Source of the DNA: Pseudomonadota bacterium
GTDB taxonomy: Bacteria; Pseudomonadota; Alphaproteobacteria; Rhodobacterales; Rhodobacteraceae
Assembly (NCBI GenBank): GCA_038533095.1
Contig: JBCAZI010000004.1
Span: 3,028-67,027, forward strand
DNA length: 64,000 bases
Reading direction: 5' to 3'
Below, piece by piece: positions 41,792 to 61,145 of this stretch. A program made the position numbers and the translations under genes. The notes below the pieces were generated by a model. The model searched no databases. It saw only the letters and a program-made list of their open reading frames with translations, and was not told the DNA's origin. The stretch's first letter is position 1. Every line of letters starts with the position of its first letter.

Positions 41792-41841
41792 TGGTGAGCC
41801 GTGATGGGTTCGAACCATCGACCTACTGATTAAAAGTCAAT
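41792..41841 (-). other. 3' half of a tRNA-Lys(UUU) gene (anticodon arm to CCA) with no 5' half: attachment-site remnant
   Basis: Minus strand reads ATTGA CTTTTAA TCAGT AGGTC GATGG TTCGAAC CCATC ACGGCTC A CCA. The required 5' acceptor strand GAGCCGT and the D arm are not present upstream. Confidence 0.75.
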
Positions 41842-42036
41842 GACACCCAATTTTCGACTATCTGTCGCGTAGCATCTCATGCTGTCCGACGTTGACTGAG
41901 AATAGCCGATATTCTGTAGTAAATGCTGACTATCTGAGCTTGTCCCCTAGTCAAAATCTGTCTATCGTCGTCGCAGGACGTCTAGTGCAATCTCGCAAGA
42001 AATGTCCCCCAGCTGTCCCCCAGAATGGGCTAAGGA

Positions 42037-43251
42037 ATGAAGCGCGACCTTAACGACAGGTTCTTGAAAACCCTCGAACCACCCAGCGAGGGCGTTGGCC
42101 GAATTGAGGTGTCTGATACACGCCGTCCAGGTCTACGCTTCCGTCTCTCTTCATCCGGTCGTGCGTCTTGGGTGTTTGAGAAACGCGTCAAAGGCGGAGC
42201 TAAACGCAAACACACGTTTGGTGCATGGCCGGAACCCATTACGCTTGCGATGGCGCGTTCGATGGCTCTTGAAATTGAAGCTGAGGCAGTCCGCGGCATT
42301 GACCGTGTTGCTATCGCCAAAGCTGACAAGCTGGCAGCGGAAGCGGCAAAGTCATCGCAGTTGACCGTCCGCAAGGTTCTTTCAACCTATGACAAACTCC
42401 ATCTGTCGAACCTACGGCGTGGCTCCGAACGGTTGCGGCAATTGGAGCAATCCCTAGCTGTCAAGTTGGATGACCCCATCGGTTCGCTAACGAAAGGCGA
42501 CCTGCAAACACCCATTGATGAAAAACTGACTGCCGGTCGGAGGGTTTACGCCAATCGTATCCGCGCGGCACTTATGGCCTTTACTCGCTGGGCCTGGGAA
42601 CGCGGCCACATTGAGACAGACATTGGGGCTAGCCTCCCGCGTGCAGCCAAGGAAGCAGAGCGTGAGCGTGTACCGTCCATTAATGAAGTTCGGCAGATTT
42701 GGACAGCCACGTTTGAGATGGGGCCAATTTGGGGGCCGTTTTTGCGGCTGTTGATCCTAACAGCGCAGCGGCGTGGAGAAGTGCTTGGGCTTGAATGGTC
42801 GGAGATAGAATTTGAACGTAAGCGCATCGTGAAGCCAGGCGCGAAGAACAAGAATGGAAAGGAGCATGTGACCCACCTATCGGCACCTGCACTGGCTGAG
42901 CTTAAAATGCTCAAGTCTGATCTGAGGGCCGCCGGTAAGCCCGTTTCGGGATACATTTTCACGACAACCGGCAGAACGCCGATTTCAGGCGTTAGTAAAG
43001 CCAAAGCCCGCTTGGACAAACTTTTGGGCGATGATTTCGATCCATGGCGTCTACATGATCTGCGAACATCATTCTCGACGGCGATGGCGGAAGCGGGTGT
43101 GCCTGAAAGCGTCGCTGACCGCGTGCTGAACCATTCGGCAGTTGGATCTGCGCCAAGCGCCGTTGCACGGGTCTACAACAAGGCCGAGATGCTGCCACAG
43201 CGGGCGGAGGCGTTGGATTCGTGGGCGCGGTTGGTGACCTATGCCGATTAA
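42037..43251 (+). CDS. int: Tyrosine-type site-specific integrase (P4-like, with DUF4102-type N-terminal arm-binding domain)
   Basis: 404 aa. N-terminus LNDRFLKTLEPPSEGVGRIEVSDTRRPGLRFRLSSSGRASWVF. Catalytic region LTAQRRGEVLGLEW ... HDLRTSFSTAMAEAG ... VLNHS ... VYNK (R..HxxR..Y). Confidence 0.9.
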   Translation: MKRDLNDRFLKTLEPPSEGVGRIEVSDTRRPGLRFRLSSSGRASWVFEKRVKGGAKRKHTFGAWPEPITLAMARSMALEIEAEAVRGIDRVAIAKADKLAAEAAKSSQLTVRKVLSTYDKLHLSNLRRGSERLRQLEQSLAVKLDDPIGSLTKGDLQTPIDEKLTAGRRVYANRIRAALMAFTRWAWERGHIETDIGASLPRAAKEAERERVPSINEVRQIWTATFEMGPIWGPFLRLLILTAQRRGEVLGLEWSEIEFERKRIVKPGAKNKNGKEHVTHLSAPALAELKMLKSDLRAAGKPVSGYIFTTTGRTPISGVSKAKARLDKLLGDDFDPWRLHDLRTSFSTAMAEAGVPESVADRVLNHSAVGSAPSAVARVYNKAEMLPQRAEALDSWARLVTYAD

Positions 43252-43945
43252 CCGTGAAAAGAACCCTCTTGATGACTTTTGGGACGAGCTCAAGAACAAC
43301 GCTGAAATCACACGCATTTTGGCTGTGATGGAAAGATTTAACCGAACCGGATACCATGTAAGCGTCTCCGATGCGCTGCCACTCTCGAAGGGTTGGATAT
43401 GCGATCCTGATATTCAAGATGCAGTGCCCGCATCCACTGCCGATGACTTAAAACGGCTTACAAAGGGAATCGAAGCCGCCAATGCAGCACTGAAATCGCT
43501 CCATCCTTCTATTTTGCAGTCGCTAGAATATAGCTTTGCATCTACACGCAAAGAAGAAGACGGCGTCAGGTTCTTTACCCGACAAAATGAACCCTTCAAT
43601 TGTTATGATCAGATTTCGACTCTTCTCACTTATTTACAAGAGGGGCTTGCAAAGGAGAATCCTGCCTCTCCCATTACCAACGCGCTAAAGTTTGCAGAAG
43701 AAATCCCCACGAAATCAAAACAGGCTACCATTCATTCAACTTGGGCCAAGATCAAGCTTGTAAGGAATGCGCGTGCAATCTGGCCAAGCTTAACCGGAAA
43801 TCGTTCTGCTCCATTGGAGCCAAGCCCAGGGACAAACTTCTTTGAATTTGTTGCCGAACTAACTTGTGCTTTGGAATTAAGCGAAGGTTGGGAAACCAGA
43901 AGCGTTTTCAACGCCTATAAAAAGCATACAAAATCAAAGTCTTAA
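43241..43945 (+). CDS. Hypothetical protein (234 aa), AT-richer orphan between int and alpA
   Basis: Long ORF overlapping the int stop by 11 nt. I recognise no motif. By eye its composition is lower in GC than its neighbours. Confidence 0.55.
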   Translation: MPINREKNPLDDFWDELKNNAEITRILAVMERFNRTGYHVSVSDALPLSKGWICDPDIQDAVPASTADDLKRLTKGIEAANAALKSLHPSILQSLEYSFASTRKEEDGVRFFTRQNEPFNCYDQISTLLTYLQEGLAKENPASPITNALKFAEEIPTKSKQATIHSTWAKIKLVRNARAIWPSLTGNRSAPLEPSPGTNFFEFVAELTCALELSEGWETRSVFNAYKKHTKSKS

Positions 43946-44053
43946 CTCGCCACCCATAGCTGATGTCAAAAAAACTGAACTAGCTATGGGTGCCACAACA
44001 TCAACTTGGCAGCAGAGTCGCATTCAGTAGCAACCGAACGCGAGGTGCATCAA

Positions 44054-44254
44054 ATGACATTTGCAAGCCAAGACCGCCTTGTTTCAGTCCGTGATACAGC
44101 AGCCATGTTGGGCTGTAGCGTTGCCACGGTCTGGCGCAAGGTATCGGAAGGGTCATTTCCGCAGCCGATGAAAATCGGCGGGATGACACGATGGTCGGAG
44201 ACTGAGCTCCTAAGCTTTATCGATGACGCCAAACAAACACGCGAAGCCGCCTAA
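44054..44254 (+). CDS. alpA: AlpA-family transcriptional regulator / excisionase-like HTH protein
   Basis: MTFASQDRLVSVRDTAAMLGCSVATVWRKVSEGSFPQPMKIGGMTRWSETELLSFI is the canonical AlpA/MerR-like phage HTH. The track ORF starts at 44006. Confidence 0.85.
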   Translation: MTFASQDRLVSVRDTAAMLGCSVATVWRKVSEGSFPQPMKIGGMTRWSETELLSFIDDAKQTREAA

Positions 44255-44358
44255 AGAAAGCCCCCGCAATCCACATCCGGGTTCGCAGGGGCCGTATTTC
44301 TTTAGCACACATTGAGAATAGCGGATGCGACCCGGTCAAACAAGCCAGTGAGGCAAAA

Positions 44359-44718
44359 ATGACCGAGCAAAATACAAGACCACCTTCAAACGCCAAGCGA
44401 GTCTACCGATGGACAGACTTGCCAGCTGCAACAGAAGCTGCGGCGTATCGCGTTTATGATCCTGATCAGGAACCGCGTACATTCGTTGTTTCAAAGCATA
44501 TGCGCCAAGTTCTAGAGGGGCTCATGCAGCACCCAATCTATGCCGCAAGCTACTGCCGCATCTCCGACCAGGTATTGCCGCTGCGCCGCGATCATGGTGT
44601 CAGCATCTGTTGCGATATGTTCAGCAACGACGTTGAAACAGGTCGCTCCCGGTTTGGAGTTTACGTCCTAGAAAGCAAGGTGGAGCGGGTTACACACAAT
44701 GAGGAGGACGCAGCATGA
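44359..44718 (+). CDS. Hypothetical protein (119 aa), possibly winged-helix DNA-binding
   Basis: ORF with ATGA coupling to the next small ORF. Precedes the replication genes. The domain call is a weak impression only. Confidence 0.5.
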   Translation: MTEQNTRPPSNAKRVYRWTDLPAATEAAAYRVYDPDQEPRTFVVSKHMRQVLEGLMQHPIYAASYCRISDQVLPLRRDHGVSICCDMFSNDVETGRSRFGVYVLESKVERVTHNEEDAA

Positions 44719-44840
44719 AGCGCCTCCAAACTTCAAAACCCCGCCAACTCCAAGAACGTCGCATTCGCTGGCAGCATGGTTTGTCGCGATCACGGGCAGG
44801 ACTGATTGCCCAGCTGCACTATGGGGAAGCGCGCCAATGA
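44715..44840 (+). CDS. Small basic ORF (41 aa) translationally coupled on both sides
   Basis: Below the track cutoff. GAGGAGG lies 7 nt upstream of ATG 44715. Sequence MKRLQTSKPRQLQERRIRWQHGLSRSRAGLIAQLHYGEARQ. Its TGA overlaps Prim-Pol ATG 44837 (ATGA). Confidence 0.4.
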   Translation: MKRLQTSKPRQLQERRIRWQHGLSRSRAGLIAQLHYGEARQ

Positions 44841-45631
44841 GTACTTCGTTCAAAATGTTTCCTGTTGGCCCGGACAAACGGCCTTTGCTTACTGGCTGGC
44901 AAGACAAAGCTACCGCTGACCCGAAAATCATCGCTGATTGGCAGAAGCAAGGCGCAAAGGCATTCGGTATCCCGACCGGGGAGAGCAACGGCCTTTTTGT
45001 CATTGATCTCGACACAGACAAGGAAACCGGAGAGGCAATTGGTGCGGCAAAGTTAGAGCAGAGCCGCTATGGCTACTTGCTGGATCAGGTGTGCGTCACA
45101 ACGCCGTCAGGTGGTGCGCACATCTACTTTCAGCATTTCGAGGGCGCACGTAACTCAACCTCGAAGCTAGCGCCCAAGGTAGATACCAGAGGCGAAGGCG
45201 GGTATGTCGTTGCTCCTGGCTCAGTAATCGCATGTGGCGAGTACAAAGGGGCTTACCCAAGTAGTCTGCCTGTAGTCCCTTTGGGGATACGCGCGTTGCT
45301 TCTCCAAAAGCATCAGCCGCAAACGTACAGCGGCGGCAGAGAAGCCGCTGCAGGCGAAGTGCAAGAGCTTTTAGAGTACATCCCAGCCGATTGCACGTAC
45401 AGCAACTGGGTGGCTGTTTTGATGGCCCTCCATGCGAAGTTCGCAGGCTCCGAGGAAGGCCTGCAGGTCGCCGACACTTGGAGCGCTTCTGGGTCGAAGT
45501 ACAAGCCCGGCGAAGTCGCTTCAAAGTGGCGCACATTTAAGGGCAGCGGCGTCTCCTGGGCGACCATCCCGGCGCTGGCACGACAAAATGGTGCAGACCT
45601 CTCAGAGATTGCGCGGAGGTGGCCTGCATGA
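44837..45631 (+). CDS. Bifunctional DNA primase/polymerase (Prim-Pol N-terminal domain + PriCT-2-like C-terminal domain)
   Basis: MFPVGPDKRPLLTGWQDKAT, GLFVIDLDTD, GGAHIYF and VDTRGEGGYVVAPGS are Prim-Pol motifs. The C-terminus YSNWVAVLMALH...KWRTFK is PriCT-like. The track ORF starts at 44699. Confidence 0.8.
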   Translation: MSTSFKMFPVGPDKRPLLTGWQDKATADPKIIADWQKQGAKAFGIPTGESNGLFVIDLDTDKETGEAIGAAKLEQSRYGYLLDQVCVTTPSGGAHIYFQHFEGARNSTSKLAPKVDTRGEGGYVVAPGSVIACGEYKGAYPSSLPVVPLGIRALLLQKHQPQTYSGGREAAAGEVQELLEYIPADCTYSNWVAVLMALHAKFAGSEEGLQVADTWSASGSKYKPGEVASKWRTFKGSGVSWATIPALARQNGADLSEIARRWPA

Positions 45632-46695
45632 ATGTAATGACACTGAACCGATCATCCGAAAGAGCAGCAGAGCTTGCAAAGAAGATGGTCGCATCGCGCG
45701 ACGTCGAGCCAACGCTAGCCACGAACTACCTTATGAAGGGGTGGCTAGACAGGAGGTGCCAATCGATCCTTTACGGGGCCTCGAACGCGGGCAAAACCTT
45801 TGTGGTGCTTGATATGGCCATGCATGTGGCTGCCAACCTCCCTTGGCGTGGGCATCGTGTTCGTGGCGGGGCGGTCCTATACATTGCCGCTGAAGGCCAA
45901 GCGGGTATCAACAACCGGATTGCAGCAATCAAGGCAGATAAGCCTGATCTTGCAGACGCTGACCTGGACGTGCTCCCTAGCACGGTTGATTTGTATGGCA
46001 GTCAAGATGCGCTAGCCATCTGTGAGGCGATTTCGGGACCTCCTCCAGTACTCATAATTGTTGATACATTGGCGCGTGCAATGGGTGGCGGAGATGAGAA
46101 CACTGCTAAGGATGCGGCCGTGTTCCTAGCCAACTGCAAGCTTATCGAAGAGGCCACTGGTGCCCATGTCATGGTCGTACATCACAGCGGCAAAGACTCC
46201 GATAAGGGCGCAAGAGGTTCTTCAGCTTTTCGGGGCGCAGTAGATACCGAAATCAGCGTCACCGCAGATGGCAAAATCGAAAGCCATAAACAGCGCGATC
46301 AGCCAAAGCCTGACCCGCTTTATTTCAGCCTGCGGCCAGTCGTGTTGGGCGTAGACGAGGACGGAGAAGAAGTGACTTCTGCCGTGGTCGATGCTGCTGA
46401 TCCTCCAAAGGCAACCAAGAAGCCGCTCACGGGCAAGAACGAGGTCGCCATCCAAGCTCTCGACGATGCCCTAAGGGAACATGGCAGCTCAAAATCTGGC
46501 AACTTCTACCCGGTTGGGCGCAAGGTCGTCCACATCGACCATTGGCGAGCTGCCTGCAAGGTTCATGGACTTACCGGCGGCGCCAGCGAAAGCTCGGAGC
46601 GCATGGCGTTCAAACGAGCCAAAGACAAACTGATGGACCTCAATGAGGTGCGCGAGTGGGGCGACCACGTTTGGAGGGTTCAAGAAGATGACTAA
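45628..46695 (+). CDS. RecA-fold AAA ATPase, RepA/AAA_25-like replicative helicase-type protein
   Basis: Walker A YGASNAGKTFVVLDM, Walker B LIIVDTLARAMGGGDEN, and VMVVHHSGKD. ATG 45628 forms an ATGA overlap with the Prim-Pol stop. Confidence 0.75.
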   Translation: MNVMTLNRSSERAAELAKKMVASRDVEPTLATNYLMKGWLDRRCQSILYGASNAGKTFVVLDMAMHVAANLPWRGHRVRGGAVLYIAAEGQAGINNRIAAIKADKPDLADADLDVLPSTVDLYGSQDALAICEAISGPPPVLIIVDTLARAMGGGDENTAKDAAVFLANCKLIEEATGAHVMVVHHSGKDSDKGARGSSAFRGAVDTEISVTADGKIESHKQRDQPKPDPLYFSLRPVVLGVDEDGEEVTSAVVDAADPPKATKKPLTGKNEVAIQALDDALREHGSSKSGNFYPVGRKVVHIDHWRAACKVHGLTGGASESSERMAFKRAKDKLMDLNEVREWGDHVWRVQEDD

Positions 46696-46701
46696 TCGAA
46701 T

Positions 46702-46801
46702 CGTCACAAACGTCACGCACCGTCACAGTGCGTCACCTGTTCTGCCCAGTTCTACCGTCACGAACGTCACACACACCTATAGGTGTGTGACGGATGTGAC
46801 G
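46702..46801. repeat. Iteron-like array: six direct CGTCAC copies (46702, 46711, 46721, 46731, 46756, 46765), two inverted GTGACG copies (46787, 46796), and a near-perfect palindrome ACACACCTATAGGTGTGT
   Basis: Read directly. The first four copies are spaced 9-10 bp apart, one helical turn. Located immediately after the RepA-like gene. Confidence 0.8.
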
Positions 46802-46842
46802 CTGGGTGGCTTCTCTGGGGGCAAGAAGGAGGCTGTTCTCAA

Positions 46843-47151
46843 ATGAAGCATCAAAGACACTTCTGGAAGGCTGGTATCAACTCAGAAACAGGCTTTGCCT
46901 TACTGGCCGAGTACGGCAGCCAACCGGGCTACTTCGCGCAAGGCCCGGATGGGTCCGTTCGTCCGCTTACAGCCACGGAGTCCGCGGCGGTGGTCGATAA
47001 GTTGGGAGAGGCCCCTAAGCGGCTCATACCGCCCTCATGCAGCCCCAAACACAACACAGGCCTTCGCGAACGCGTTGCGCAAGCAATGGGATACGAAAAG
47101 CGCACAAGCAGCGCCACTGACAAAGGCAGGTACACAGCACATGACTTCTGA
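46843..47151 (+). CDS. Hypothetical protein (about 102 aa)
   Basis: ORF MKHQRHFWKAGINSETGFALLAEY..., starting after the iterons. Overlaps the DUF5681 start by 11 nt. The track ORF begins at 46783, inside the palindrome. Confidence 0.45.
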   Translation: MKHQRHFWKAGINSETGFALLAEYGSQPGYFAQGPDGSVRPLTATESAAVVDKLGEAPKRLIPPSCSPKHNTGLRERVAQAMGYEKRTSSATDKGRYTAHDF

Positions 47152-47590
47152 GGAAGACAACCGCAATCGCGGTGAATTAGCGGAGGGGCGCACCCCAGAT
47201 GGACGTTTCGCCAAAGGTAATAAGGGGCGACCATACGGGACACGCACAAGGGCCACGAAGGCGGTTATGGAGATACTCGACGGCCAAGTGGAACAGATCA
47301 CGGAAAAGGCCCTCAGCTTGGCCCTGCAGGGCGACACGACCGCTTTGCGACTGTGTCTCGAACGGATAGCACCGCCCCGCAAAGATGCTCCAGTTGAGTT
47401 TGATCTTCCCAAGATGGAAGGTGCGGACGACGCTGCCAAGGCCGCAGCATCTATCCTTGCTGCGGTCTCGCAAGGGGACCTGACGCCAACCGAGGGCGCT
47501 CATGTGATGGCTCTGATCGAGACCTATCGTAGGACCTTGGAAGCTACCGAAATCGAAAAACGACTGACAGAGCTGGAGAACGCTAGATGA
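47141..47590 (+). CDS. DUF5681-like protein (about 149 aa)
   Basis: RFAKGNKGRPYGTRTRATKAVMEIL...ALQGDTTALRLCLERIAPPRKD resembles the basic G-rich N-terminus plus helical core of DUF5681, from memory. I prefer ATG 47141 over the track start 46895. Confidence 0.5.
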   Translation: MTSEEDNRNRGELAEGRTPDGRFAKGNKGRPYGTRTRATKAVMEILDGQVEQITEKALSLALQGDTTALRLCLERIAPPRKDAPVEFDLPKMEGADDAAKAAASILAAVSQGDLTPTEGAHVMALIETYRRTLEATEIEKRLTELENAR

Positions 47591-47736
47591 CCACAGACTC
47601 AATCAAAAAACGGCTTGCGGCCATTGAGCCCCCGAGTGAGCCAATGAAGTTCGTCGTAACCATCGGCGAGGCCCCAGATAACGGCATCATCAAAGAGCCG
47701 GTCAAAGTTACTGTAAGGGAAACGACGGATGAGTAG
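47587..47736 (+). CDS. Small ORF (49 aa)
   Basis: Below the track cutoff. ATGA overlap with the DUF5681 stop. Sequence MTTDSIKKRLAAIEPPSEPMKFVVTIGEAPDNGIIKEPVKVTVRETTDE. Overlaps the next ORF by 8 nt. Confidence 0.4.
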   Translation: MTTDSIKKRLAAIEPPSEPMKFVVTIGEAPDNGIIKEPVKVTVRETTDE

Positions 47737-47977
47737 CAGTATCAGAAGACGCCTACAGGCTTTGGCTCCCACAACCGGCACGGGCCCCGTAGGGTTCAGT
47801 CACGTGTTTCTGGTGCCTTTGCGGGGCAAGCACGACACCTCGCCACCAAGTGATCCGCGTTATTCATGCATGGTTCCCGGCAGGATTTCCGGGGCGATAG
47901 GCAGCAATCCCGGCGAAAGCTACGAGGCTTTCCAAGCCCGCATGCAAGAGGAGTACCCATCAGATGCAACGCAATAG
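47729..47977 (+). CDS. Hypothetical protein (82 aa)
   Basis: Track ORF. Its N-terminus SSIRRRLQALAP echoes the IKKRLAAIEP of the preceding small ORF. Overlaps the next ORF by 14 nt. Confidence 0.45.
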   Translation: MSSSIRRRLQALAPTTGTGPVGFSHVFLVPLRGKHDTSPPSDPRYSCMVPGRISGAIGSNPGESYEAFQARMQEEYPSDATQ

Positions 47978-48350
47978 CCTACAGGATCGCGCCACAGCCC
48001 GGCGATTGGCAAAAACTCTGGCAACACATTGCTATGGAAAGGCTGCAGATGGTTCTGAGGTCTTAATCGACAGCCCTGAAGCGACGGGTACCTTGGAGCG
48101 GGCCTTCCATCACTTTCTCCTAAATGGACCAGACCCTCATGTGATCAAGCTCTCAGGGGCCGCAGTCAAAGGGTTTCCGGTTTCAGGGATACTTCCAGAC
48201 GCGGATTGGTATCTAAGTGTTTGGATCGACGAGAGACACCAACCCCGCTTTCATGTTCGTCAAGCTGACAGCGCAATAGGTCACGGCCTAGATCACGAAA
48301 TGCAGTGCCGGAACGCCGTCGCTAAAGCGGTTCAGATCACTGCGATTTAG
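47964..48350 (+). CDS. Hypothetical protein (128 aa)
   Basis: Track ORF within the same co-directional, overlapping gene string. Confidence 0.45.
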   Translation: MQRNSLQDRATARRLAKTLATHCYGKAADGSEVLIDSPEATGTLERAFHHFLLNGPDPHVIKLSGAAVKGFPVSGILPDADWYLSVWIDERHQPRFHVRQADSAIGHGLDHEMQCRNAVAKAVQITAI

Positions 48351-48437
48351 CCCCAATTTCATAGTGTTTTGCCGCAGTTTGTGGTAGAATAATTCGAGCA
48401 TTTAGAGGGGGCAAACCCCCAGAAAGCAGGCAGAAAA

Positions 48438-50195
48438 ATGGAACTTCTTGAAGCCCAAACACAGCCCGAAAGACTTCAGTATTCAGAGAGTGATCTGAAA
48501 GCGGCAGCGATCAGAGCTCAAAATGCTGGAGACATCGCGGCAGCACGTCGGTTGGTAGAGGCCGCACGCAATGCGGCGAGCCAACAGAGCCCGACAGTTG
48601 GGCAACCAGCGATGTCGCCTTTGCCGAACAGCAGTCCACTAGCCGGTGACAACCCAACGCCTGTCAGTAGCACCGCTTCTTTGCCTTCTCTGACGCCAGG
48701 GGTCCAAGCCAACGGCCAAGGTGCAGCTATGAACATCGGTGCAAGGGGCCGTCGCGCCAATCGTGCCGACACACCAGCGGCAAGTCATCCCGGTATTTTT
48801 CAAACACTGCGCGACAACATCATTGGCGATGATGACGATACCACGATGAACTTCGGCGAAAGACTAGGTGCAGCCCTCAACAAAGGCGGCGAAAGCATGA
48901 CCATGGGCCTTGTCGGTGACGAGATGGCGGGGCGCGCCGACGCACTGATCGGGCGCGGCACGGCAGAAGACCGGACCCAGTTCTATCGTGATCAAGAGAA
49001 CCAGCTAGACGAACAGCACCCGGTACTTTCGACAACAGCCGCGATTACCGGTGCGATCATTGGTCCAGCCAAAGGTGCGACCGGGTTTGTGAACGCGGGA
49101 CGCAACGCCGGCACCAGAGTTGGCCGAGGCGCAATGGTTGGTGCCGGAGCCGGAGCAACCTATGGCGCGATGGAGGGCGAAACCGCTGAAGAGCGCCTTA
49201 CAGGTGGCCTTGTAGGCGGAACGATGGGCGCTGTGACAGGTGGTGCGCTCACTGGCGCAGGCCAGGGGTTCAGCGCTGCTGCTCAACGCCTCACTGGCAA
49301 GCCACAGGCGCAAGAGGTATTGCCAACGCTACAAAGCCTCACTGATGAAGCTCGGGGCCTCTATGCAGCCGCTGAGCGCGCTGGTGGGGTAGTTTCCCAG
49401 CAATCAATTGCAGGGCTCACGAAGAATACGCAAAGCGCTTTACGTGAGGCAGGATATAACCCTCGCCTGCATCCTCGGATGGGCGCGGTTTTAGATGAAA
49501 TGCAGGAGCTAAGTACCGGCCCAGCTTCTTTGCGCGCTATGGACCAACTCCGACGGGTCGCAGGCAACGCAGCTGAATCGCTGCAACGTGATGAGCGCCG
49601 ATTGGGAAGACTTGTGATCGGACGTATCGATGAAGCAGTTGAACAAATGGACGGTGGGGCAGAGGTCGCTGCCGCGCGGGAAGTGTGGGGTCGCTTGCAG
49701 CGGATGGCTACAATCGAAGGCGTCATTGAGAAGGCCAGTAACTCGCCAAACTTCGAAACGACCCTGGCGACTGGTTTCAGGTCCCTATTGAACCGCAAAG
49801 GTGCTTTGCGTGGTTTTAGGGACGAAGAGATACGGACTATGCGCCAGATAGCGAGTGGTGGGGGTGGAGCAGGTACGCTCAGAGCGCTAGGCAACATCTT
49901 GGCCCCTGATCGCTTCTCCGGCCAAATGTTGACGGGTGGGGCGCTTTTGGGTGGCGGTGGCATAGGGGCCTTGGCTATTCCGGCAGCGGGCGCGACGATG
50001 CGTGGAGCAGGTAACCGGCTTCAGCGGCGATCAGCAGATGGATTGCGGAACTCAGTGGGTCAGAGTGACGCCAGCCGCGCCTTGATGGACGCAATTGTTG
50101 CTCCTCCAAATCCGTTTGCAGGCGCGAGTGGTGCAGTACCGGTAGTCGGGCCCGCAACAACAGAGAACCTGATGCGTGCAATCAAAGGCCGGTAG
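48438..50195 (+). CDS. Large Ala/Gly-rich hypothetical protein (585 aa) with glycine-zipper-like hydrophobic segments
   Basis: Longest ORF of the element. Contains the segments TTAAITGAIIGPAKGATGF, GAMVGAGAGATYGAM, GGLVGGTMGAVTGGALTGAG and GGALLGGGGIGALAIPAAGA. No catalytic motif recognised. Confidence 0.6.
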   Translation: MELLEAQTQPERLQYSESDLKAAAIRAQNAGDIAAARRLVEAARNAASQQSPTVGQPAMSPLPNSSPLAGDNPTPVSSTASLPSLTPGVQANGQGAAMNIGARGRRANRADTPAASHPGIFQTLRDNIIGDDDDTTMNFGERLGAALNKGGESMTMGLVGDEMAGRADALIGRGTAEDRTQFYRDQENQLDEQHPVLSTTAAITGAIIGPAKGATGFVNAGRNAGTRVGRGAMVGAGAGATYGAMEGETAEERLTGGLVGGTMGAVTGGALTGAGQGFSAAAQRLTGKPQAQEVLPTLQSLTDEARGLYAAAERAGGVVSQQSIAGLTKNTQSALREAGYNPRLHPRMGAVLDEMQELSTGPASLRAMDQLRRVAGNAAESLQRDERRLGRLVIGRIDEAVEQMDGGAEVAAAREVWGRLQRMATIEGVIEKASNSPNFETTLATGFRSLLNRKGALRGFRDEEIRTMRQIASGGGGAGTLRALGNILAPDRFSGQMLTGGALLGGGGIGALAIPAAGATMRGAGNRLQRRSADGLRNSVGQSDASRALMDAIVAPPNPFAGASGAVPVVGPATTENLMRAIKGR

Positions 50196-50321
50196 TCCGG
50201 CAACAGCAGGCATTCGCGCCGTCTAGCAGCGGGAAGCAAATAAATTAAACTGTCAGATGTTCGCTTCGAGCCCAGTGACACCGATGCTGGATTTTGCGCG
50301 AACGTATTGTTTTCTGTGTTA

Positions 50322-50355
50322 GCTGCCCGCACGGAGCGGCGGGCAGCATTCTTTT
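50322..50355 (+). terminator. Rho-independent terminator after the 585-aa gene
   Basis: Stem GCTGCCCGC (50322..50330) / GCGGGCAGC (50339..50347), an 8-nt loop, then ATTCTTTT. Confidence 0.75.
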
Positions 50356-51364
50356 AGAGGCCCAGTTCTTCCGCAATCATACTAATAATGCTAGCGTGAA
50401 TCGCTTCGCGATTTGATCCTTCGGGGTCAGTGCAAACCGGATCATCGTCTTCTTCCGCCAAGATAGCTTCGCCAGCTTCAGTGCAGACCGGCATGGCACT
50501 GAAGTGGTAGGCAGGATCAAACCGCTCAATTTTCCGATCACCGAGCAAGGCAGAAAGCCCACTGCGATCAAAATCGGTGGCAAGCATCCGGTCACCGTCA
50601 CCGCCAAAGCCGATGACAAGTGTTTTAGGGACAAGGTTAGTGATGTCGTAATCCTCCAACCCCCAGACAAAGCCCGGGTCAATCGCGGCAATATGGGTGA
50701 CGCGACTATCGCGATAGCTGGCGTTCCAGACCTTTGGATCGAGCCCCTGCATATTCACCTCCTCTGACAATAGAAGCCCGCAGGCCTCCATGTCCGTATA
50801 GGTCATGCAAGCATCAACGATCCCGGCATGGTTGCCAGTCGCCCCTCCAAGCGACAAAGCCGTCCAGCCGCCATATGAAAACCCCGCAGCCATAACGCGG
50901 GACATATCAAGGCTGCCCGAAAAGCCGGGCATATCAACGAGCGCGTCCAGAGCAGCGCTCATGTCCTGGGCGCGGGTCCAATGGGCAACGCCTTTGGACA
51001 TATCGAAATCTCCCCAGGTGGAGTTGGCATGGTTGACGGACACGGTGATCACGCCGCGTTGCGCTAAGGCGGAGGCGAGCCAAGCCTGTGCGCGATCCGT
51101 TCCGCCCATCCCGTGGCTGAACAGGACTACAGGATGCCGGCCGAGCGTTAGAGGCGCGTCCAGATGAGCCTCAACACCCTCGAACACCGGATTGTTCGCG
51201 TATAGCGTCGGTGGCTGTTCGGAGGTGCTGGGATACCAGACCGCTACGCGGCTCGCGGCTCCGTGGTGCGGCATGAACACCTCGTTGATTTTCAGCCCCG
51301 CCACATCGGCGTGTGCATAAGAGACGCAACAGGCAAGGGCAGCAGATGACAGGATCGTTTTCAT
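50354..51364 (-). CDS. Secreted alpha/beta hydrolase (dienelactone hydrolase / PAF-acetylhydrolase-like)
   Basis: Signal peptide MKTILSSAALACCVSYAHA, nucleophile elbow GFSYGG, and VLFSHGMGG. Confidence 0.7.
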   Translation of the reverse strand: MKTILSSAALACCVSYAHADVAGLKINEVFMPHHGAASRVAVWYPSTSEQPPTLYANNPVFEGVEAHLDAPLTLGRHPVVLFSHGMGGTDRAQAWLASALAQRGVITVSVNHANSTWGDFDMSKGVAHWTRAQDMSAALDALVDMPGFSGSLDMSRVMAAGFSYGGWTALSLGGATGNHAGIVDACMTYTDMEACGLLLSEEVNMQGLDPKVWNASYRDSRVTHIAAIDPGFVWGLEDYDITNLVPKTLVIGFGGDGDRMLATDFDRSGLSALLGDRKIERFDPAYHFSAMPVCTEAGEAILAEEDDDPVCTDPEGSNREAIHASIISMIAEELGL

Positions 51365-51500
51365 TTCTTTCTCCGTTGATCATAGAGTTGATGCCCCCTC
51401 ACTACCTGCAAGGTCCGATATCGGCGTCCTAAATCCGGTTTTAGGTCGTCATGATCTGGTTCTAGGACTATCCAAGGCTGAAATTCTAAGGAGCAACGAC

Positions 51501-52472
51501 GTGCTAACCTTTCCAATTCCAGTGTTCGTGGCCTTCGTGCTTGGCTTTGCCGGTCTTCGGCTGTGGTGGCTGAGGGGACATGCCAGCCCCATCATCTTGC
51601 TGCTTATGTTATGTGCCGCTCAGTCATTGATCATTGCGCTCAGCCAACACTATGGCGTAGCCAGCATGCGCATCGTTCAACCACTCGTGGCTTCGTTGAT
51701 CCCTCCGGCAGCTTGGATTGCTTATCGAAACCACGTGTCTCGTGCCGACAGCCTGCACGGGCTTGGACCGTTGACCGCAATTGCGGCTCTTCTTGTTGCC
51801 CCCCAGTTTCTGGATGTGCTGCTGCCGGGTCTTTTCGTGGTTTACGGCATATTGATTGTGACATCTGCGAAAGACGGTGCCGATACGCAACCTGATGCGC
51901 TTTTGGCCAGCGGTGACTTGCCCGCACAGATTTGGCTTGTCATCGGAGCGGCCCTGATCGCTTCAGCACTCAGCGATATCCTGATCGTCGCATCGCAAAT
52001 GGCGGGCTATACCGAACTGCGGCCATGGATCATCAGCATCTTTTCGGTGGGCAACCTCCTGATCATCGGGGCGCTCAGTTTTTCCCCACACTTGCAAACT
52101 GTCGCCGATGGCCAGCTCGGCGAAACACCCACGGTAAAGATTGCCGACACCGAAATCTGGGACCGCATTCAAACCTTCATGGAAGAACAAAGGCCCTATC
52201 TCGACCCTGACCTGACATTGGCCCGGTTGTCGCGCAAAATGGGCGTGCCATCGAAATCACTGTCGGAGACGATCAACTTGACAACAGGAGAGAATGTGTC
52301 CCGCTTTATCAACAAAGCGCGGATCACAGCGGCTCAAGAGGCCATGTTGAAAGGTGAAACCGTCACCAACGCCATGCTGCTGTCCGGTTTCAACACCAAA
52401 TCAAATTTCAACCGCGAGTTTCTTCGTGTCGTCGGAAGCCCCCCACGTGCTTGGTTGGCCGAACACACATAA
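51501..52472 (+). CDS. AraC-family transcriptional regulator with N-terminal multi-TM domain
   Basis: About 6 hydrophobic helices in the first 200 aa. C-terminal AraC HTH: LARLSRKMGVPSKSLSETIN...LLSGFNTKSNFNREFLRVVGSPP. Confidence 0.8.
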   Translation: MLTFPIPVFVAFVLGFAGLRLWWLRGHASPIILLLMLCAAQSLIIALSQHYGVASMRIVQPLVASLIPPAAWIAYRNHVSRADSLHGLGPLTAIAALLVAPQFLDVLLPGLFVVYGILIVTSAKDGADTQPDALLASGDLPAQIWLVIGAALIASALSDILIVASQMAGYTELRPWIISIFSVGNLLIIGALSFSPHLQTVADGQLGETPTVKIADTEIWDRIQTFMEEQRPYLDPDLTLARLSRKMGVPSKSLSETINLTTGENVSRFINKARITAAQEAMLKGETVTNAMLLSGFNTKSNFNREFLRVVGSPPRAWLAEHT

Positions 52473-52687
52473 CGCCCTCGGACCGAGGTGATTGGGGCAA
52501 TGGACAGCGAACGGTTTGTTGATGTTAGTATTCCCAAATGCAGTCTTTGAGTGGTCGCTGTTGAATGAAAGTTTGGTCCTGCCCCGCAGTCATCCGAGGT
52601 CCAACAATCCGTAACTAACCGACTGAAAGCATCAAACTTCTGCTCGCTTGCACTTTGCTCAAGGCTCAGCAATTAGTAAGGTAGGGC

Positions 52688-53608
52688 ATGAACAATGACC
52701 TTCCTTCCTTCGACGCTGCCACACTTAATTCTCCGACGTCAGCAGACCTGTCTCGCATGGCTAACTGCGCGCAAGGCATAGGCTTTCTGACGGTCTACAA
52801 CACAGTCCTAACGCCTGCCCGTGTTCGTTTCGCACTTTCGGCCTATCAGGCTTTCTTCGAACTTCCAGATGTTGAGAAACAGAAGGTCAATATGGCCGTG
52901 ACGGATGCCAATCGTGGCTGGGGCGCAGCCGGTTCTGAGCAAGTAGACCCTGCAGCCAACCCTGACTACAAACAGGTCTATGATTGTGGCTTCGAGCTGC
53001 CTGCCAACAACCCGCTGTCCAAAATGCGCGCCTATGGCCCAAACTTATGGCCCGATGCTCCTGCTGGTTTCCAAGAAGTCATCCAGGCCTATTATCAGGA
53101 CGCACTTGCTGTAGCGCGACTCATTCTACGGGTACTTGCGCAAGCTATCGGTGCTGAGCCAGACTACTTCGAGGACAAGTTTACCAGACCCATGGCTTTG
53201 CTCAGGGGAAATTACTATCCTCCTCGGCCTGATTGGGCGGGTGAGAAAGACTGGGGGATTGCGACACACACCGACTACGGATGCCTCACACTTCTGGCCA
53301 CCGATGGTGTTCCAGGGCTTGAAGTCAGGTTGCGTGGCGGTGACTGGCTGCCAGTCACAGCTGAACCCGGAACTTTCATAATCAATTTCGGCGAAATGAT
53401 TGAGATGTGGACCGAGGGAAGAGTAAAGGCGACACCGCACCGAGTGCGCGGAACGGAGCAGGAACGACTATCAATGCCACTCTTTTTCAACCCCAATCAT
53501 GACACTGATGTCGCTCCTCCTGGAGCAATAAAGCCAATCAGGGCCATTGATCACTTGCAGGCGCGATTTGATGAAACTTACACCCATCTCCAGAAAGTCG
53601 CTGGCTGA
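52688..53608 (+). CDS. 2-oxoglutarate/Fe(II)-dependent oxygenase (isopenicillin N synthase-like family)
   Basis: HTDYGCLTLL (HxD), ATPHRV (distal His), and LSMPLFFNP. Confidence 0.8.
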   Translation: MNNDLPSFDAATLNSPTSADLSRMANCAQGIGFLTVYNTVLTPARVRFALSAYQAFFELPDVEKQKVNMAVTDANRGWGAAGSEQVDPAANPDYKQVYDCGFELPANNPLSKMRAYGPNLWPDAPAGFQEVIQAYYQDALAVARLILRVLAQAIGAEPDYFEDKFTRPMALLRGNYYPPRPDWAGEKDWGIATHTDYGCLTLLATDGVPGLEVRLRGGDWLPVTAEPGTFIINFGEMIEMWTEGRVKATPHRVRGTEQERLSMPLFFNPNHDTDVAPPGAIKPIRAIDHLQARFDETYTHLQKVAG

Positions 53609-53846
53609 GTTTCAGTGCTTTGCCGACTTTGAGGCAATGGGGACAAGAAAAGTACAAGACGTAACTGTTTTGGTGTGTGCTCTTTCCGATCCAAGTTGCT
53701 AAGGATACTGCGGGCGAATGTGATAGCAACCTTGAGTGACTACATCGATTGTCGTTGCTCGTTCATGCCTCAGGAAGCCTATGGCCGCTCTGAGGCGAGA
53801 TTGATTTCGATCATAACAATTCAGCCTAGAGGTACCTATATGATGG

Positions 53847-54146
53847 GTGTGGGCAGATAGGTTCGAGATGAAAGACACATACGATGCAGAGTACGCAGAC
53901 GCTTTCCAGCTGTATGAGGTGGCGATTGATGCCGGCTGGCGATCAGTCAGATCAATACCTCTTGCTGGGCAGGGTCCGTTTGAAGCGCTTACAATTCGTG
54001 GCTTGATCAGGATAGTGAAGACACGTAGCCCGGTTCTTCGGATCAGGCGCGCTGATGGCTATGGCCCTGAAAGGGTGACCGTAAAAGCAATCACGTCTGG
54101 CAACTACTTAGCGGCCATTGCGTGGCGACCTCTTCAGGGTGCGTAG
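53847..54146 (+). CDS. Hypothetical protein (99 aa; alternative start 53868)
   Basis: Track ORF flanked by AT-rich spacers. No motif recognised. Confidence 0.35.
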   Translation: MWADRFEMKDTYDAEYADAFQLYEVAIDAGWRSVRSIPLAGQGPFEALTIRGLIRIVKTRSPVLRIRRADGYGPERVTVKAITSGNYLAAIAWRPLQGA

Positions 54147-54522
54147 GCCATGACTTAGTATGCTATCTACGTTTACGTAGCTTGGTCATAAAATACATCA
54201 GTACGCTATAAATACAGGCTCCGGCGGGATCGGTGTAAGCGCCATGAACAAATAAAAAACAAAAGGCAGTTTGAGGTTCATCGCATTTCCCCTTTTTAAT
54301 GCCATCTGGTTAACGGCACTCAACTCCCTGTCTAGAAGTCAGCGTGCAATGCGCCGACACAGACCCATGAATCTGAAAAGGTATACCGCAAATCCACCGT
54401 GAGGCATGCTCAAACCAAGGTCCGCTCTGGGCTGGCACTGGTCAACCAGCCAAATCTGTCAGATATCAGCTTCGAGCCCATCTTTCTTCATGCTGCACGC
54501 ACCACGAACGTCGGCTCAGGCT

Positions 54523-54915
54523 TCACTCGTTGGATGCGTAGCACACAGCTTGGAGCTTGTTCCCATCCGGATCACGGACGTAAGCAGCATAGTAGTTCTC
54601 GCCGTAATGCGGGCGTGGTCCTGGCGCGCCTTCGGTGCTGCCGCCCAAACGCAGCGCAGCTTCATGGAAGTCCCTTACGCTTTGCTTTGTATCTGCGACA
54701 AAAGCCACATGTGTGCCATTTCCCCAAGTTGCAGGGCGGCCATCTTCAGGTGTGTAGATATAAACTGTTGGCATGCCGCCTTTCTCGTATGCAGGTGGCT
54801 TGCCCGGCGGCTTCGGTAGTCGACTAAAGCCGAGCACGCCGAGAACCTCATCGTAAAAGCGACCGGATCGTTCTGGGTCATTTGTTCCAAATGTGATGTG
54901 GCTAATGACTGACAT
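54523..54915 (-). CDS. VOC (glyoxalase/bleomycin-resistance fold) family protein
   Basis: MSVISHITFGTNDPERSGRFYDEVLGVLGF ... HVAFVA ... YAAYVRDPDGNKLQAV. Confidence 0.8.
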   Translation of the reverse strand: MSVISHITFGTNDPERSGRFYDEVLGVLGFSRLPKPPGKPPAYEKGGMPTVYIYTPEDGRPATWGNGTHVAFVADTKQSVRDFHEAALRLGGSTEGAPGPRPHYGENYYAAYVRDPDGNKLQAVCYASNE

Positions 54916-55080
54916 GCAAAATACTCTCCTTGCTTGAGTAGAGAATAAAACAAGAACATTTGCCTTGCAATCTCTGGGTTGAAGGTCAGCGATGTTTTCC
55001 CCGAACCCGCCATTCGCGCGTCCTCAGCGAAAGCTCACTTCGTCCCGCTCAGCGGTCATTGGCACCTTTCTTGTAACTCT

Positions 55081-55338
55081 TCATTGATCAAAAAACTGCA
55101 TTACAAATCCTGCTAGCAAAAGAGCAGGCCCAAGATTTGCCAGCACGTTCGCTGTACTGCGACTGAAGGTTTGACGCCATGCCAACCACCGGTTCCAAAC
55201 CGAAGGTTTGAAGTCGGGGTCTGGCAAAGGAGGAAGGCTGGCAAAGCTTTCTAAATTTGGCCGCGTTGCATATTCTAACCAAAGGATTGCTACGCCGAAT
55301 GCGTCTACTAACAACCCCCATTGGGTCAATGTCATCAT
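55081..55338 (-). CDS. Small 2-TM membrane protein (about 85 aa)
   Basis: MMTLTQWGLLVDAFGVAILWLEY ... LGPALLLAGFVMQFF. The maximal ORF reaches 55383. Confidence 0.45.
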   Translation of the reverse strand: MMTLTQWGLLVDAFGVAILWLEYATRPNLESFASLPPLPDPDFKPSVWNRWLAWRQTFSRSTANVLANLGPALLLAGFVMQFFDQ

Positions 55339-55463
55339 TCGTCGGCACCTTTGTTGGAAGCTGTTTGAGACAGCCTGACACAATTGAGACTAGAGGTCCA
55401 ACGTCGGCTTCGAGCCCACTTTTCCGGATGCTGCGCCGCGCGCAAATGGCCGCTTCTTGGAGA

Positions 55464-55967
55464 TCATCGCCGATAGATAGGGATATTGGTTCGTCCTGAC
55501 GATATCATGAATACAATGAATGCGACCGCCAACATTAGAGCCGCGCCGAAGAGATAAATTATGAAGTACCATTCACCGCCGGGAAGCAGCACCGCGACAT
55601 TTGGATCGTCAACATCATAGTAAACGATGATTTTACTCCCGCCTGTTCTTGTTGCGAGTTCTTTGATCGCCTGATCGCGCGTACTTTCTACTGTTCCATC
55701 AACACGGAAGTTTGGCGTGGGTCCGAACACGATGCGATCATGAGTATAGTTGGTTTCTGCAACAGTGTATCGATACTGCACAAAGGCTGTCCGGCCGTAC
55801 GTTTGGCCAGACCCGCCGGTCTCAAACCCCGCTGAGACAATCGTCCCGGTTACAGAGGGCCACGACTTACTTTCGATTGACAGCAACATTTGGCCAAATC
55901 CAATCCAACTCAACCAAAAGGCTCCAAAGAACAGTCCAATTACAATCAAGCGTGAGAAAAAACGCAA
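55464..55967 (-). CDS. DUF3592-domain membrane protein
   Basis: N-terminal TM, SWPSVTGTIVS...VQYRYTV....Y beta-rich core, then a C-terminal TM. This is the typical DUF3592 layout. Confidence 0.65.
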   Translation of the reverse strand: MRFFSRLIVIGLFFGAFWLSWIGFGQMLLSIESKSWPSVTGTIVSAGFETGGSGQTYGRTAFVQYRYTVAETNYTHDRIVFGPTPNFRVDGTVESTRDQAIKELATRTGGSKIIVYYDVDDPNVAVLLPGGEWYFIIYLFGAALMLAVAFIVFMISSGRTNIPIYRR

Positions 55968-56483
55968 ACTGGAACTTCCTTTCTTTCTTTCAATTGAACC
56001 AAGAACTCATGTTATCGCTGCATTGTCAAATGTGGTTTGACTGTCTTGGAAAACAGTACGAAGCCGACATTAGCGATGGCACTGAGAAGGTACGCTTCGT
56101 CCGCTAAGCAGCCGTAGCCTAAGCGCACTGCTCACATCTGTTTCTTGGCCTTCAAACTCTTGAAACGTTCAATGCGGTCGCTCGTCAAGATCATAGCATC
56201 GGGGTCAACCCGGAGCAGGATGCAAAAGGGACGTGGGTTCATCAGATTCATAATTGGTCAATCTCGGATTTGATGCATGGGGCTGTTCGCTTGGGGTGAA
56301 CAAGCCCTTCAACCGAATACAGAGAAAGCCGAGGTTTGATTCTGCATTTTATGATTGCATAGCGCACGGTACTTCGCGCTAAGATAGTAGAATGATGTTT
56401 CTGCTTTCTTCACATTATTCCACCACCGGTTCGAGAAGGCTCACCTGCGCGCTTCTCCCGTTAAAATGGTTCATATTTGAATA

Positions 56484-57548: not shown

Positions 57549-57593
57549 CCGGCGGCCAACTGCCATTTAGACGAAACGATTTAGTCCAAAGTA

Positions 57594-58846: not shown

Positions 58847-58861
58847 GTTCCTGAAATGTTC
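58847..58861 (+). promoter_or_regulatory. Alphaproteobacterial LexA (SOS) box GTTC-N7-GTTC
   Basis: GTTCCTGAAATGTTC read directly, ending 5 nt before ATG 58867 of the ORF that contains the SRAP domain. Confidence 0.55.
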
Positions 58862-58866
58862 TTTCG

Positions 58867-59835: not shown

Positions 59836-59841
59836 CGAGGC

Positions 59842-61052: not shown

Positions 61053-61064
61053 ACCGCCTCTTTT

Positions 61065-61132: not shown

Positions 61133-61145
61133 AAAGGGGTATGCA

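Follow-up and report, generated by a model that had tools for sequence, protein, structure and literature searches.

A 64,000-nt stretch of a Rhodobacteraceae assembly (GCA_038533095.1, contig JBCAZI010000004.1, positions 3,028-67,027 of the forward strand; hereafter the window) carries, from position 41792 onwards, a genomic island that is inserted at the 3′ terminus of a tRNA-Lys(UUU) gene and opens with a one-directional operon of integrase, replication and DUF5681 genes, the last gene of which encodes a homolog of a podophage ejection protein. The island runs past the end of the window, and positions beyond 64,000 are given as window-equivalent, from extension by a public contig, L006, which is 100% identical to window 56114-64000 (0 mismatches in 7,887 nt) and runs about 1.5 kb further; related loci are likewise designated by L numbers. 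Open reading frames (ORFs) of the window were scanned against Pfam, PHROGs, NCBIfam and PADLOC, tRNA genes were called with ARAGORN and Rfam, and repeats were sought with Tandem Repeats Finder (TRF) and by repeat searches. All figures for dN/dS, the ratio of nonsynonymous to synonymous substitution rates, compare the window with L001. The left part of the island contains the following features.

41792..41839, minus strand: core of the left attachment site (attL), the 3′ 48 nt, including CCA, of the displaced tRNA-Lys(UUU) gene
41941 (single) and 42003-42023 (tandem pair), plus strand: predicted arm-type integrase-binding repeats TGTCCCC(C/T)AG, from TRF and repeat searches
42037..43251, plus strand: P4-type tyrosine integrase (int), 404 aa (Pfam Arm-DNA-bind_3 1.4e-10, Phage_integrase 2.7e-19)
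43241..43945, plus strand: int-overlapping variable gene (orf234), 234 aa, with an 11-nt overlap with int
44006..44254, plus strand: AlpA-family helix-turn-helix (HTH) regulator (Pfam HTH_17 1.4e-8, Phage_AlpA 2.7e-5)
44359..44718, plus strand: conserved 119-aa gene (orf119) after alpA, in the "up1" position
44699..45631, plus strand: Prim-Pol primase with PriCT_2 domain (Pfam 3.3e-27 and 2.5e-18; PHROG DNA primase families)
45619..46695, plus strand: RepA-like RecA-fold ATPase/helicase (Pfam AAA_25 3.9e-39; PHROG primase/helicase families)
46697..46806: iteron-type origin, with six direct and two inverted copies of CGTCAC and a palindrome at the end
47141..47590, plus strand: DUF5681 protein, 149 aa, the family hallmark
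47587..48350, plus strand: three overlapping small ORFs of 49, 82 and 128 aa
48438..50195, plus strand: 585-aa Gly/Ala-rich homolog of a podophage internal virion (ejection) protein
50322..50347, plus strand: intrinsic terminator, 9-bp stem (8 GC pairs) and then a T-run

Left operon

All genes of the left operon lie on the plus strand, and at six junctions the start of one gene overlaps the stop of the one before by 4-20 nt, much as a preliminary description of this region had it. The integrase, AlpA, Prim-Pol and AAA_25 genes that it had called are each matched by Pfam, and its tRNA-Lys scar can be read directly as the 48-nt 3′ end of a minus-strand tRNA-Lys gene. Confirmation extends to its orphan AT-rich gene, orf234, which has no family match in Pfam, PHROGs, NCBIfam or PADLOC and a GC content of 0.454 against 0.567 for the rest of the operon, and to its strong closing terminator, which besides ending the operon faces a convergent hydrolase gene. 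The iteron array that it had placed after the RepA-like gene is equally distinct: CGTCAC reaches 8 copies per 120 nt in 46702-46801 and at most 2 per 120 nt elsewhere in 65.5 kb. In relatives the iterons are conserved in position after the rep genes and divergent in sequence, being CGTCAC here, GGGACA in L001 and GCAACG in L002.

The integrase is 46-49% identical to those of two other tRNA-Lys islands, L002 and L018. In L001, L002, L015, L018 and L075 the gene that overlaps int codes for 205-292 aa and is non-homologous, and from this position we infer that orf234 is an analogue of iolg of the PICMIs (phage-inducible chromosomal minimalist islands), a predicted excision cofactor. Excision of PICMI115 requires iolg, and alpA by itself activates that element (PMC10803314). 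AlpA occupies the same position in every annotated relative. The orf119 product is 35-61% identical in L001, L002, L016/17 and L018 (dN/dS 0.16), and the products of orf82 and orf128, the two larger of the small ORFs at 47587-48350, are 79% and 84% identical in L001 (dN/dS 0.29 and 0.15). None of the three small ORFs has a family match in the Pfam, PHROG or NCBIfam scans. The conserved genes of unknown function are all under purifying selection, with dN/dS values of 0.08-0.29.

Ends of the island

The 48-nt scar is present once in the window, and no whole tRNA was called there by ARAGORN or Rfam. It matches the intact tRNA-Lys(ttt) of the related island L002 and is homologous to the 47-nt repeat that bounds L002. 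The first 26 nt of the attL core recur at the end of L006, at window-equivalent 65476, which places the second att copy 23,684 nt from the first. About 70 nt inside this right copy, at window-equivalent 65393-65412, the tandem TGTCCCCCA-N2-TGTCCCCCA of the left end also recurs. L002, a Pseudooceanicola island, has the same design, with tandem TGTCCCCCA repeats at both ends and att copies 17,030 nt apart, the right one being an intact tRNA-Lys(ttt). The integrase of L001 is a different one, and that island sits at tRNA-Leu(gag), with att copies 16,513 nt apart and the far-end tRNA intact; L001 bears a tandem repeat of its own at both ends. The repeats at both ends of our island read as predicted arm-type integrase sites, and since arm repeats and att core are found together at both ends, the whole 23.7 kb is the recombination unit of the integrase. 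The right-hand elements are as follows.

Window-equivalent 65393-65523 (L006 end sequence): attR together with the right arm sites
Predicted attP: right end ...TTATTGAAAAAA + 48-nt core + ATGACACCCAATTTTCG...

The mobile unit is thus a 23.7-kb island in the 3′ end of tRNA-Lys(UUU), from window position 41792 to window-equivalent ~65,520. The preliminary description had closed an 8.5-kb element at 50355, but no second att copy was found inside the window, including near 50355, and that position is only the end of the left operon. The content assigned to the element was accordingly too small, as cargo of about 10 kb also belongs to it, and so does a second regulatory module, which is conserved. 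An empty insertion site was sought through the flanking ChrB and ABC-ATPase proteins, and no record of one was found.

Homolog of a phage injection protein

The 585-aa protein matches PHROG 5880 (E 7.9e-9) and gp19 of Sulfitobacter phage phiGT1, the latter with a tblastn E of 3e-14 and, with the low-complexity filter on, in two blastp segments (E 6e-13 and 2e-11). The L002 copy matches gp19 with an E of 2.8e-50, and the L018 copy is 55.5% identical to it over 472 aa (E 1.4e-106). In phiGT1, gp19 is annotated as "putative internal virion protein/injection protein"; it is listed as "IVPD/gene20", an analogue of P22 gene 20, with 41 spectra by mass spectrometry of purified virions (PMC10386132 Table S3). 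The search for an ejection-protein fold that had been suggested for this gene from the outset was apt, the protein being homologous to a verified internal virion/injection protein of a roseophage. The gene is under purifying selection (dN/dS 0.08), and the island copies have an extra 110-450 N-terminal residues relative to phage gp19. In contigs of podophages with a P22-type coat, more distant homologs come directly behind an SLT-domain protein and precede the lysis genes. No other structural gene of phiGT1 has a homolog in any island examined. Searches of PDB sequences with the 585-aa protein, and likewise with the products of orf164 and orf213 from the right end of the island, gave nothing useful, and the PADLOC defence models matched neither the 585-aa protein nor DUF5681 nor the orphan gene at 43241-43945.

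A 99%-identical partial copy of the 585-aa protein (P0001) was met on a 1.9-kb contig in a metagenome-assembled genome named "Cyanobacteria bacterium J06576_12"; this is probably a Rhodobacteraceae contig misbinned as cyanobacterial.

The DUF5681 protein

The preliminary description had called the gene DUF5681-like, and that likeness (PF18932) stands, but the start does not: it lies at 47141, and not at 46843 or 46895, and the resulting 149 aa are the length of the ~1,860 homologs. The over-long 231-aa ORF matches PF18932 with an E of 1.7e-5 and 25.7 bits, just below the gathering cut-off of 27.5, and the 149-aa form and most homologs bear precomputed PF18932 annotation in the database. The protein has a basic N-terminal GRxxDGxFxxGNxGRPxG arm, which is disordered in the AlphaFold2 (AF2) model (predicted local distance difference test score, pLDDT, 75) and is followed there by four helices. 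A search for a small-terminase fold, also proposed earlier, came back empty: the model has no significant PDB match (best E 0.27), a profile search of PDB sequences found nothing, and comparison with BFVD gave no significant match, the best being an unnamed protein (E 2e-3) and a weak phBC6A51 homeodomain (0.09). Fold comparison thus does not support a small terminase.

A scan of viral contigs with the single DUF5681 sequence gave nothing, and an alignment-based scan gave matches, among them distant homologs directly after the large terminase gene (TerL) in two IMG/VR phage contigs, L026 and L028; in L026 the homolog lies between TerL and an SU10-type portal. The family had been said often to sit at the start of packaging modules, but in both phage contigs examined it comes after TerL. 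A DUF5681 protein has also been reported from the virion proteome of a Salmonella phage (PMC8954984). We take DUF5681 to be a predicted DNA-binding, packaging-linked factor, for which only synteny suggests a small-terminase role.

Relatives of the island

DUF5681 comprises ~1,860 protein clusters at 62-76% identity, in hosts that include Thioclava, Marivita, Paracoccus, Ruegeria, Fuscovulum, Tateyamaria and Cypionkella. Relatives are also encoded in metagenomes, at 492 loci or more. The annotated relatives share one order: int comes first, overlapped by a non-homologous gene, then AlpA with small genes, the replication module, and DUF5681 with small ORFs, beyond which come an optional large protein, cargo and a far-end tRNA (Lys, Leu, Ser, Ala or Thr). 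The replication modules are swapped among relatives, being either Prim-Pol/AAA_25 or DUF7146-Toprim with DUF3987; the last is found in L015-L018, L037 and L085. In 31 of 31 metagenome loci of at least 6 kb, DUF5681 follows int-alpA-primase on the same strand, and none of these 31 loci matched the TerL, portal or major capsid protein references. The ORFs scanned across 41.8-65.5 kb of our island gave no capsid, portal, terminase, tail, lysis, relaxase or type IV secretion system (T4SS) match, as had been reported for the smaller interval, and the annotated Rhodobacteraceae relatives have no virion or conjugation genes, relaxase, coupling protein and T4SS included. In 40+ homologous loci the module was never found inside a complete prophage or an integrative and conjugative element (ICE).

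Family members range from 6.9 to 23.7 kb. At the small end, L075 (6,984 nt) has a 77-nt terminal overlap, giving a 6,907-nt unit; L078, assembled from another sample, has the L075 sequence in circularly permuted order (99.6-99.9% identity); and L044 has a 106-nt terminal overlap, giving a 7,105-nt unit. All three are free of tRNA genes and of chromosomal flanks. Given the terminal overlaps, the permutation and the lack of flanks, minimal members exist as circles or concatemers. Their genes are int, the overlapping gene, alpA, primase/helicase, small ORFs and DUF5681.

Several more distant replicons are worth recording. In L024 the large neighbour of DUF5681 is a TMP_3 tape measure gene; in L020 that place is taken by TMP_2 and on the Shigella plasmid L111 by a baseplate gene. 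L020 (MT836812.1, 8,660 nt), a scaffold from human faeces deposited as "UNVERIFIED Bacteriophage sp.", has genes for a DUF5681 protein (49% identical), a tail chaperone resembling gp10 of gene transfer agents (GTAs), an 825-aa TMP_2 tape measure and a Mob_Pre relaxase. It lacks capsid genes and may be a further replicon of satellite-like or mobilizable type. L110 (NC_011760.1), which is M. extorquens pCMU02 (22.6 kb), carries DUF5681, ParA and a tyrosine recombinase, as does L111 (NZ_CP055032.1), a 13.3-kb Shigella plasmid that adds Toprim, VirE and a "phage baseplate protein", and plasmid-form relatives of the family may thus exist. L025/L029 (IMGVR_UViG_2526164571_000012, 35 kb) is a predicted viral region of an isolate genome, in which genes for an 820-aa lysin-domain protein, a 938-aa PHROG-5880 protein and DUF5681 stand in a row, accompanied by a homolog of orf253 of the right-end module. 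Examined as a possible complete phage with gp18-like, gp19-like and DUF5681 genes, it showed no large capsid, portal or terminase ORFs in the 20 kb examined and no phiGT1 match; it may be a phage or another island.

Right-end module

Between the left operon and attR lie the cargo and the second conserved module.

50354..60741: variable cargo, with alpha/beta-hydrolase, AraC, 2OG-Fe(II) oxygenase, DUF3592, Hint_2, SRAP, K+ channel and unknowns (Pfam)
60813..61052, minus strand: candidate XRE/Cro-type HTH repressor, 79 aa, the HTH being called by reading the sequence
61061..61134: operator-like repeats TGCTGATAGCA / TGCTATCAGCA, 3-4 copies, in the divergent promoter region
61146..63480, plus strand: right-end operon orf213-orf253-orf136-orf164
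61146-61739, plus strand: orf213, with a C-terminal SH3/WYL_2-like domain
61817-62578, plus strand: orf253, with a twin-arginine signal (SRRNLLLGIAAAS...AAAAS)
62986-63480, plus strand: orf164
63663, running past 64000, plus strand: HipA_2-like gene, 246 aa (PHROG 3162; PADLOC PDC-M66A 5e-7)
Window 63663-64000 plus L006 7550-9104: the HipA_2-like gene together with its 276-aa partner (PHROG 5137)

The order orf213-orf253-orf164 next to attR is kept in L001, L002 and L018, under purifying selection (dN/dS 0.09-0.13), and the three products are 67, 61 and 86% identical in L001 and 41, 36 and 62% in L002 by tblastn; in L018 the figures are 60% for orf213 and 67% for orf164. Homologs of the XRE candidate adjoin orf213 homologs in L043 and L082, and HTH_3 genes are found there in L015 and L018; the layout of operator-like repeats is the same at 15702-15789 of L001. 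In the excised circle the right module would come to lie upstream of int, so that the backbone would be contiguous across attP and the cargo confined to defined slots, namely 50.35-60.7 kb, the interval between orf164 and attR, and the int-overlapping gene. The HipA_2-like gene and its partner occupy the second of these slots and are a possible toxin/defence cargo pair.

From its signal, the orf253 product is probably exported to the periplasm. A twin-arginine protein was unexpected in the backbone of a mobile element; a 29%-identical homolog is the one found in L025. For orf164 there are 211 homologs, in roseobacter genera only. Its AF2 model (pLDDT 81.6) has no significant fold match, and a resemblance to PvuII was discarded (TM 0.31, not significant).

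Nature of the island

The preliminary description had proposed an integrative, self-replicating element in the manner of P4 and the phage-inducible chromosomal islands (PICIs), devoid of virion genes, and that proposal is supported. We favour a more specific reading, which we judge somewhat likelier to be right than wrong: the island is a PICI/PICMI-type phage satellite that also ferries cargo and carries an ejection-protein gene. It is probably spread by phages. A satellite of this kind would lie silent until a helper phage infects the cell, at which point AlpA would turn on the operon. Integrase and the product of the int-overlapping gene would then excise a circle, as in PICMI115, and Prim-Pol and the RepA-like helicase would replicate it from the iterons. 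The DNA would be packaged, probably as concatemers or by headful, into heads of phiGT1-type podophages (~40 kb), with DUF5681 presumably acting at this step as a DNA-binding, packaging-linked factor, and the island's gp19 homolog would either equip the transducing particles or poison those of the helper. More speculatively, and with a good deal less confidence, the pattern might extend to the family as a whole, such that DUF5681 satellites carry one DNA-delivery component matched to the type of helper, in place of capsid remodelling. That component would be an ejection protein here, for phiGT1-type podophages, and a tape measure or baseplate protein in others, and with it the satellite would customise the DNA injection of the particle or sabotage the particles of its helper.

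A number of points weigh against the satellite reading. For the island and its relatives alike, phage induction, packaging and transduction are predictions from gene content. The injection-protein gene is accessory, occurring in 73 clusters against ~1,860 for DUF5681 and in 1 of the 31 metagenome loci, and hence it cannot be essential to transfer of the family. DUF5681 has no detectable small-terminase fold or sequence similarity, and neither a pac nor a cos site was identified. Circular contigs are known for minimal relatives and not for this island, and they may come from samples other than virus-particle fractions. The survey of markers used few phage reference proteins, so that unrelated virion genes could have escaped it in unannotated loci. 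The right-hand intact tRNA-Lys was not seen in full, since L006 stops 26 nt into the repeat. Finally, sizes of 6.9-23.7 kb and metabolic-looking cargo fit a general cargo shuttle equally well.

That last point defines the strongest rival, which we regard as a real though lesser possibility: a phage-independent, tycheposon-like cargo island that excises and replicates by itself and moves by vesicles, GTA-assisted recombination or transformation, and in which the injection-protein homolog and DUF5681 are host anti-phage functions, such as a decoy or dominant-negative ejection protein or a superinfection block. The ~10 kb of metabolic and regulatory cargo, the 7-24 kb size range, the accessory character of the injection-protein gene and the lack of a terminase-like fold in DUF5681 are all at home in such an island. 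So is the toxin- or defence-like cargo, HipA_2/PDC-M66A here, Fic/SocA in L002 and MmeI in L021/L023; moreover, cargo-carrying tycheposons were enriched in vesicles and not in phage fractions (10.1101/2020.12.28.424599). However, proven satellites have this same int-iolg-alpA-primase layout, in phages DUF5681 is adjacent to TerL, and DUF5681 replicons are repeatedly accompanied by single virion DNA-delivery genes (IVPD, tape measure, baseplate). No defence-system model matched the 585-aa or DUF5681 proteins.

An integrative mobilizable element (IME) or integrated plasmid, with an unrecognised oriT on which a conjugative system in the same cell would act, seems to us improbable. DUF5681 homologs do occur on small plasmids with ParA and Toprim/VirE modules, and on the 8.66-kb scaffold one is found together with a Mob_Pre relaxase, but relaxase, coupling protein and T4SS are absent from the island and from its annotated Rhodobacteraceae relatives, 6 of 6 plasmids were typed as non-mobilizable, and the phage-derived genes would be left unexplained. 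We give very little credence to a prophage in decay of which the integrase, the replication genes and one structural gene survive. Such a remnant might be expected to show a single virion-protein homolog and, at a tRNA gene, an integrase of phage type, but the virion-less layout recurs in dozens of loci and many genera with att and arm sites intact, purifying selection acts on all genes, replication modules have been exchanged and not eroded, circular forms exist, and the other structural genes of phiGT1 left no trace. Equally slight are the chances of a compact 8.5-kb satellite that ends at the 50355 terminator, with the rest being chromosome: the compact one-direction operon, its strong terminator and the existence of ~7-kb minimal relatives would suit it, but the att copy is absent near 50355 and present with arm repeats at 65.4-65.5 kb, and orf213-orf253-orf164, at 61-63.5 kb, are kept next to attR in L001, L002 and L018.

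Roseobacters are model marine heterotrophs whose horizontal gene transfer is usually ascribed to plasmids and GTAs. If the satellite reading holds, thousands of tRNA-integrated satellite-type islands would constitute a major unnamed route of gene flow in this group, possibly of phage defence as well; DUF5681 would gain a biological context; and, on the more speculative reading of the whole family, the carriage of a helper DNA-delivery component would be a new satellite strategy. The ejection-protein gene points to a concrete helper hypothesis, in the form of podophages of the phiGT1/pCB2047 type, which are in culture, and with relatives of the island in cultured Sulfitobacter, Ruegeria and Roseobacter this hypothesis is directly testable.

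Comparison with known systems

In the literature searched, we found no published description of the DUF5681 island family and none of a Rhodobacteraceae helper-phage satellite with an integrase; DUF5681 is mentioned there in a single paper, an unrelated one. The closest layout is that of the PICMIs of Vibrionaceae (PICMI115, which has been characterised experimentally; Barcia-Cruz et al. 2024, PMC10803314), with which the island shares its gene order (int, then a variable gene that overlaps int, alpA, a small gene and a primase), the absence of capsid-remodelling or virion genes, and a variable hotspot of cargo or defence. Like iolg, orf234 overlaps int, by 11 nt, and the gene at this position varies among relatives; the minimal relatives of 6.9-7.1 kb, with a DUF3987 primase and occurring as circles or concatemers, add to the likeness. 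Unlike PICMIs, which lie downstream of fis, measure ~6 kb and use a DUF3987/DUF5906 primase, the island has a Rhodobacteraceae host, a tRNA-Lys site, Prim-Pol and AAA_25 with iterons, and a length of 23.7 kb that includes ~10 kb of cargo. Its DUF5681 gene, XRE/orf213-orf164 module and injection-protein homolog are extra, and its helper dependence is a prediction.

With the Gram-negative PICIs (EcCICFT073 type; Fillol-Salom et al. 2018, PMC6092414) the island has in common co-directional int and alpA at one end, a pri-rep module with adjacent origin and a specific att site. PICIs lack phage structural and lysis genes; in the island no capsid, portal, terminase, tail or lysis gene was found, and one homolog of an internal virion protein is present. 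It differs in bacterial class, in its 23.7 kb, compared with ~10-15 kb or about one third of the helper genome for a PICI, and in carrying an internal virion-protein gene, while homologs of terS, rpp, ppi and cpm were not recognised in it and DUF5681 is a candidate by synteny only. Satellite P4 shares the P4-type integrase with arm-binding domain at a tRNA gene and a primase/helicase replicon, and plasmid forms comparable to its own occur among DUF5681 replicons; psu, delta, sid and cos-type features and a P4 alpha primase, however, were not found in the Pfam, PHROG and NCBIfam scans. Against prophages and against ICEs or IMEs the island is set apart by what it does not have, capsid, portal, terminase and tail genes in the one case and, in the island and annotated relatives alike, a relaxase and a T4SS or its coupling protein (T4CP) in the other.

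The Prochlorococcus tycheposons (Hackl et al., 10.1101/2020.12.28.424599) likewise have a tyrosine recombinase, a partial tRNA repeat at one end facing an intact tRNA at the other, and replication genes of their own. Together with the marine VEIMEs (virion-encapsidated integrative mobile elements; Eppley et al. 2022, PMC9618062), they resemble the DUF5681 family in ranging from minimal satellite-like to cargo-carrying members in marine hosts. The features shared with tycheposons concern mode of working, not descent. VEIMEs include elements of Alphaproteobacteria, so that the earlier remark that such satellites are characterised mainly in Gammaproteobacteria and Firmicutes needs amending: marine alphaproteobacterial satellites are already on record from metagenomes (PMC9618062). 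VEIMEs are defined as concatemer-derived monomers recovered from virus particles; among the DUF5681 relatives there are circular or concatemeric contigs. Neither DUF5681 nor an injection-protein gene is mentioned in the main texts of the tycheposon and VEIME papers.

Cargo region and minor observations

The cargo at 50354-60741 is without counterpart in L001, L002 or L018 and has a GC content of 0.522. It includes a Hint_2 protein of 354 aa (56484-57548, Pfam E 2.6e-53) that adjoins a stretch of lower GC (~0.50) at 53-58 kb. The 12-mer GCTTCGAGCCCA occurs three times on the plus strand, at 50263, 54469 and 55407, all in the variable region, against an expectation of 0.01, and forms the core of a ~38-nt repeat (50252-50289, 54458-54495 and 55396-55433), the first copy of which falls after the stop codon of the 585-aa gene and before the terminator. 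Such repeats might mark junctions of cargo cassettes or be a small regulatory element. In L001, the 84%-related island at tRNA-Leu, two more tyrosine-recombinase genes (330 and 477 aa) lie at 12999-15421, between the left arm and the right module, which suggests that the cargo slot contains a nested insertion or a recombination module. Elsewhere in the window, ARAGORN called a 90-nt tRNA-Cys at 14442-14531, inside the long ORF 13654-15927; Rfam has no tRNA there, and the call is probably a false positive.

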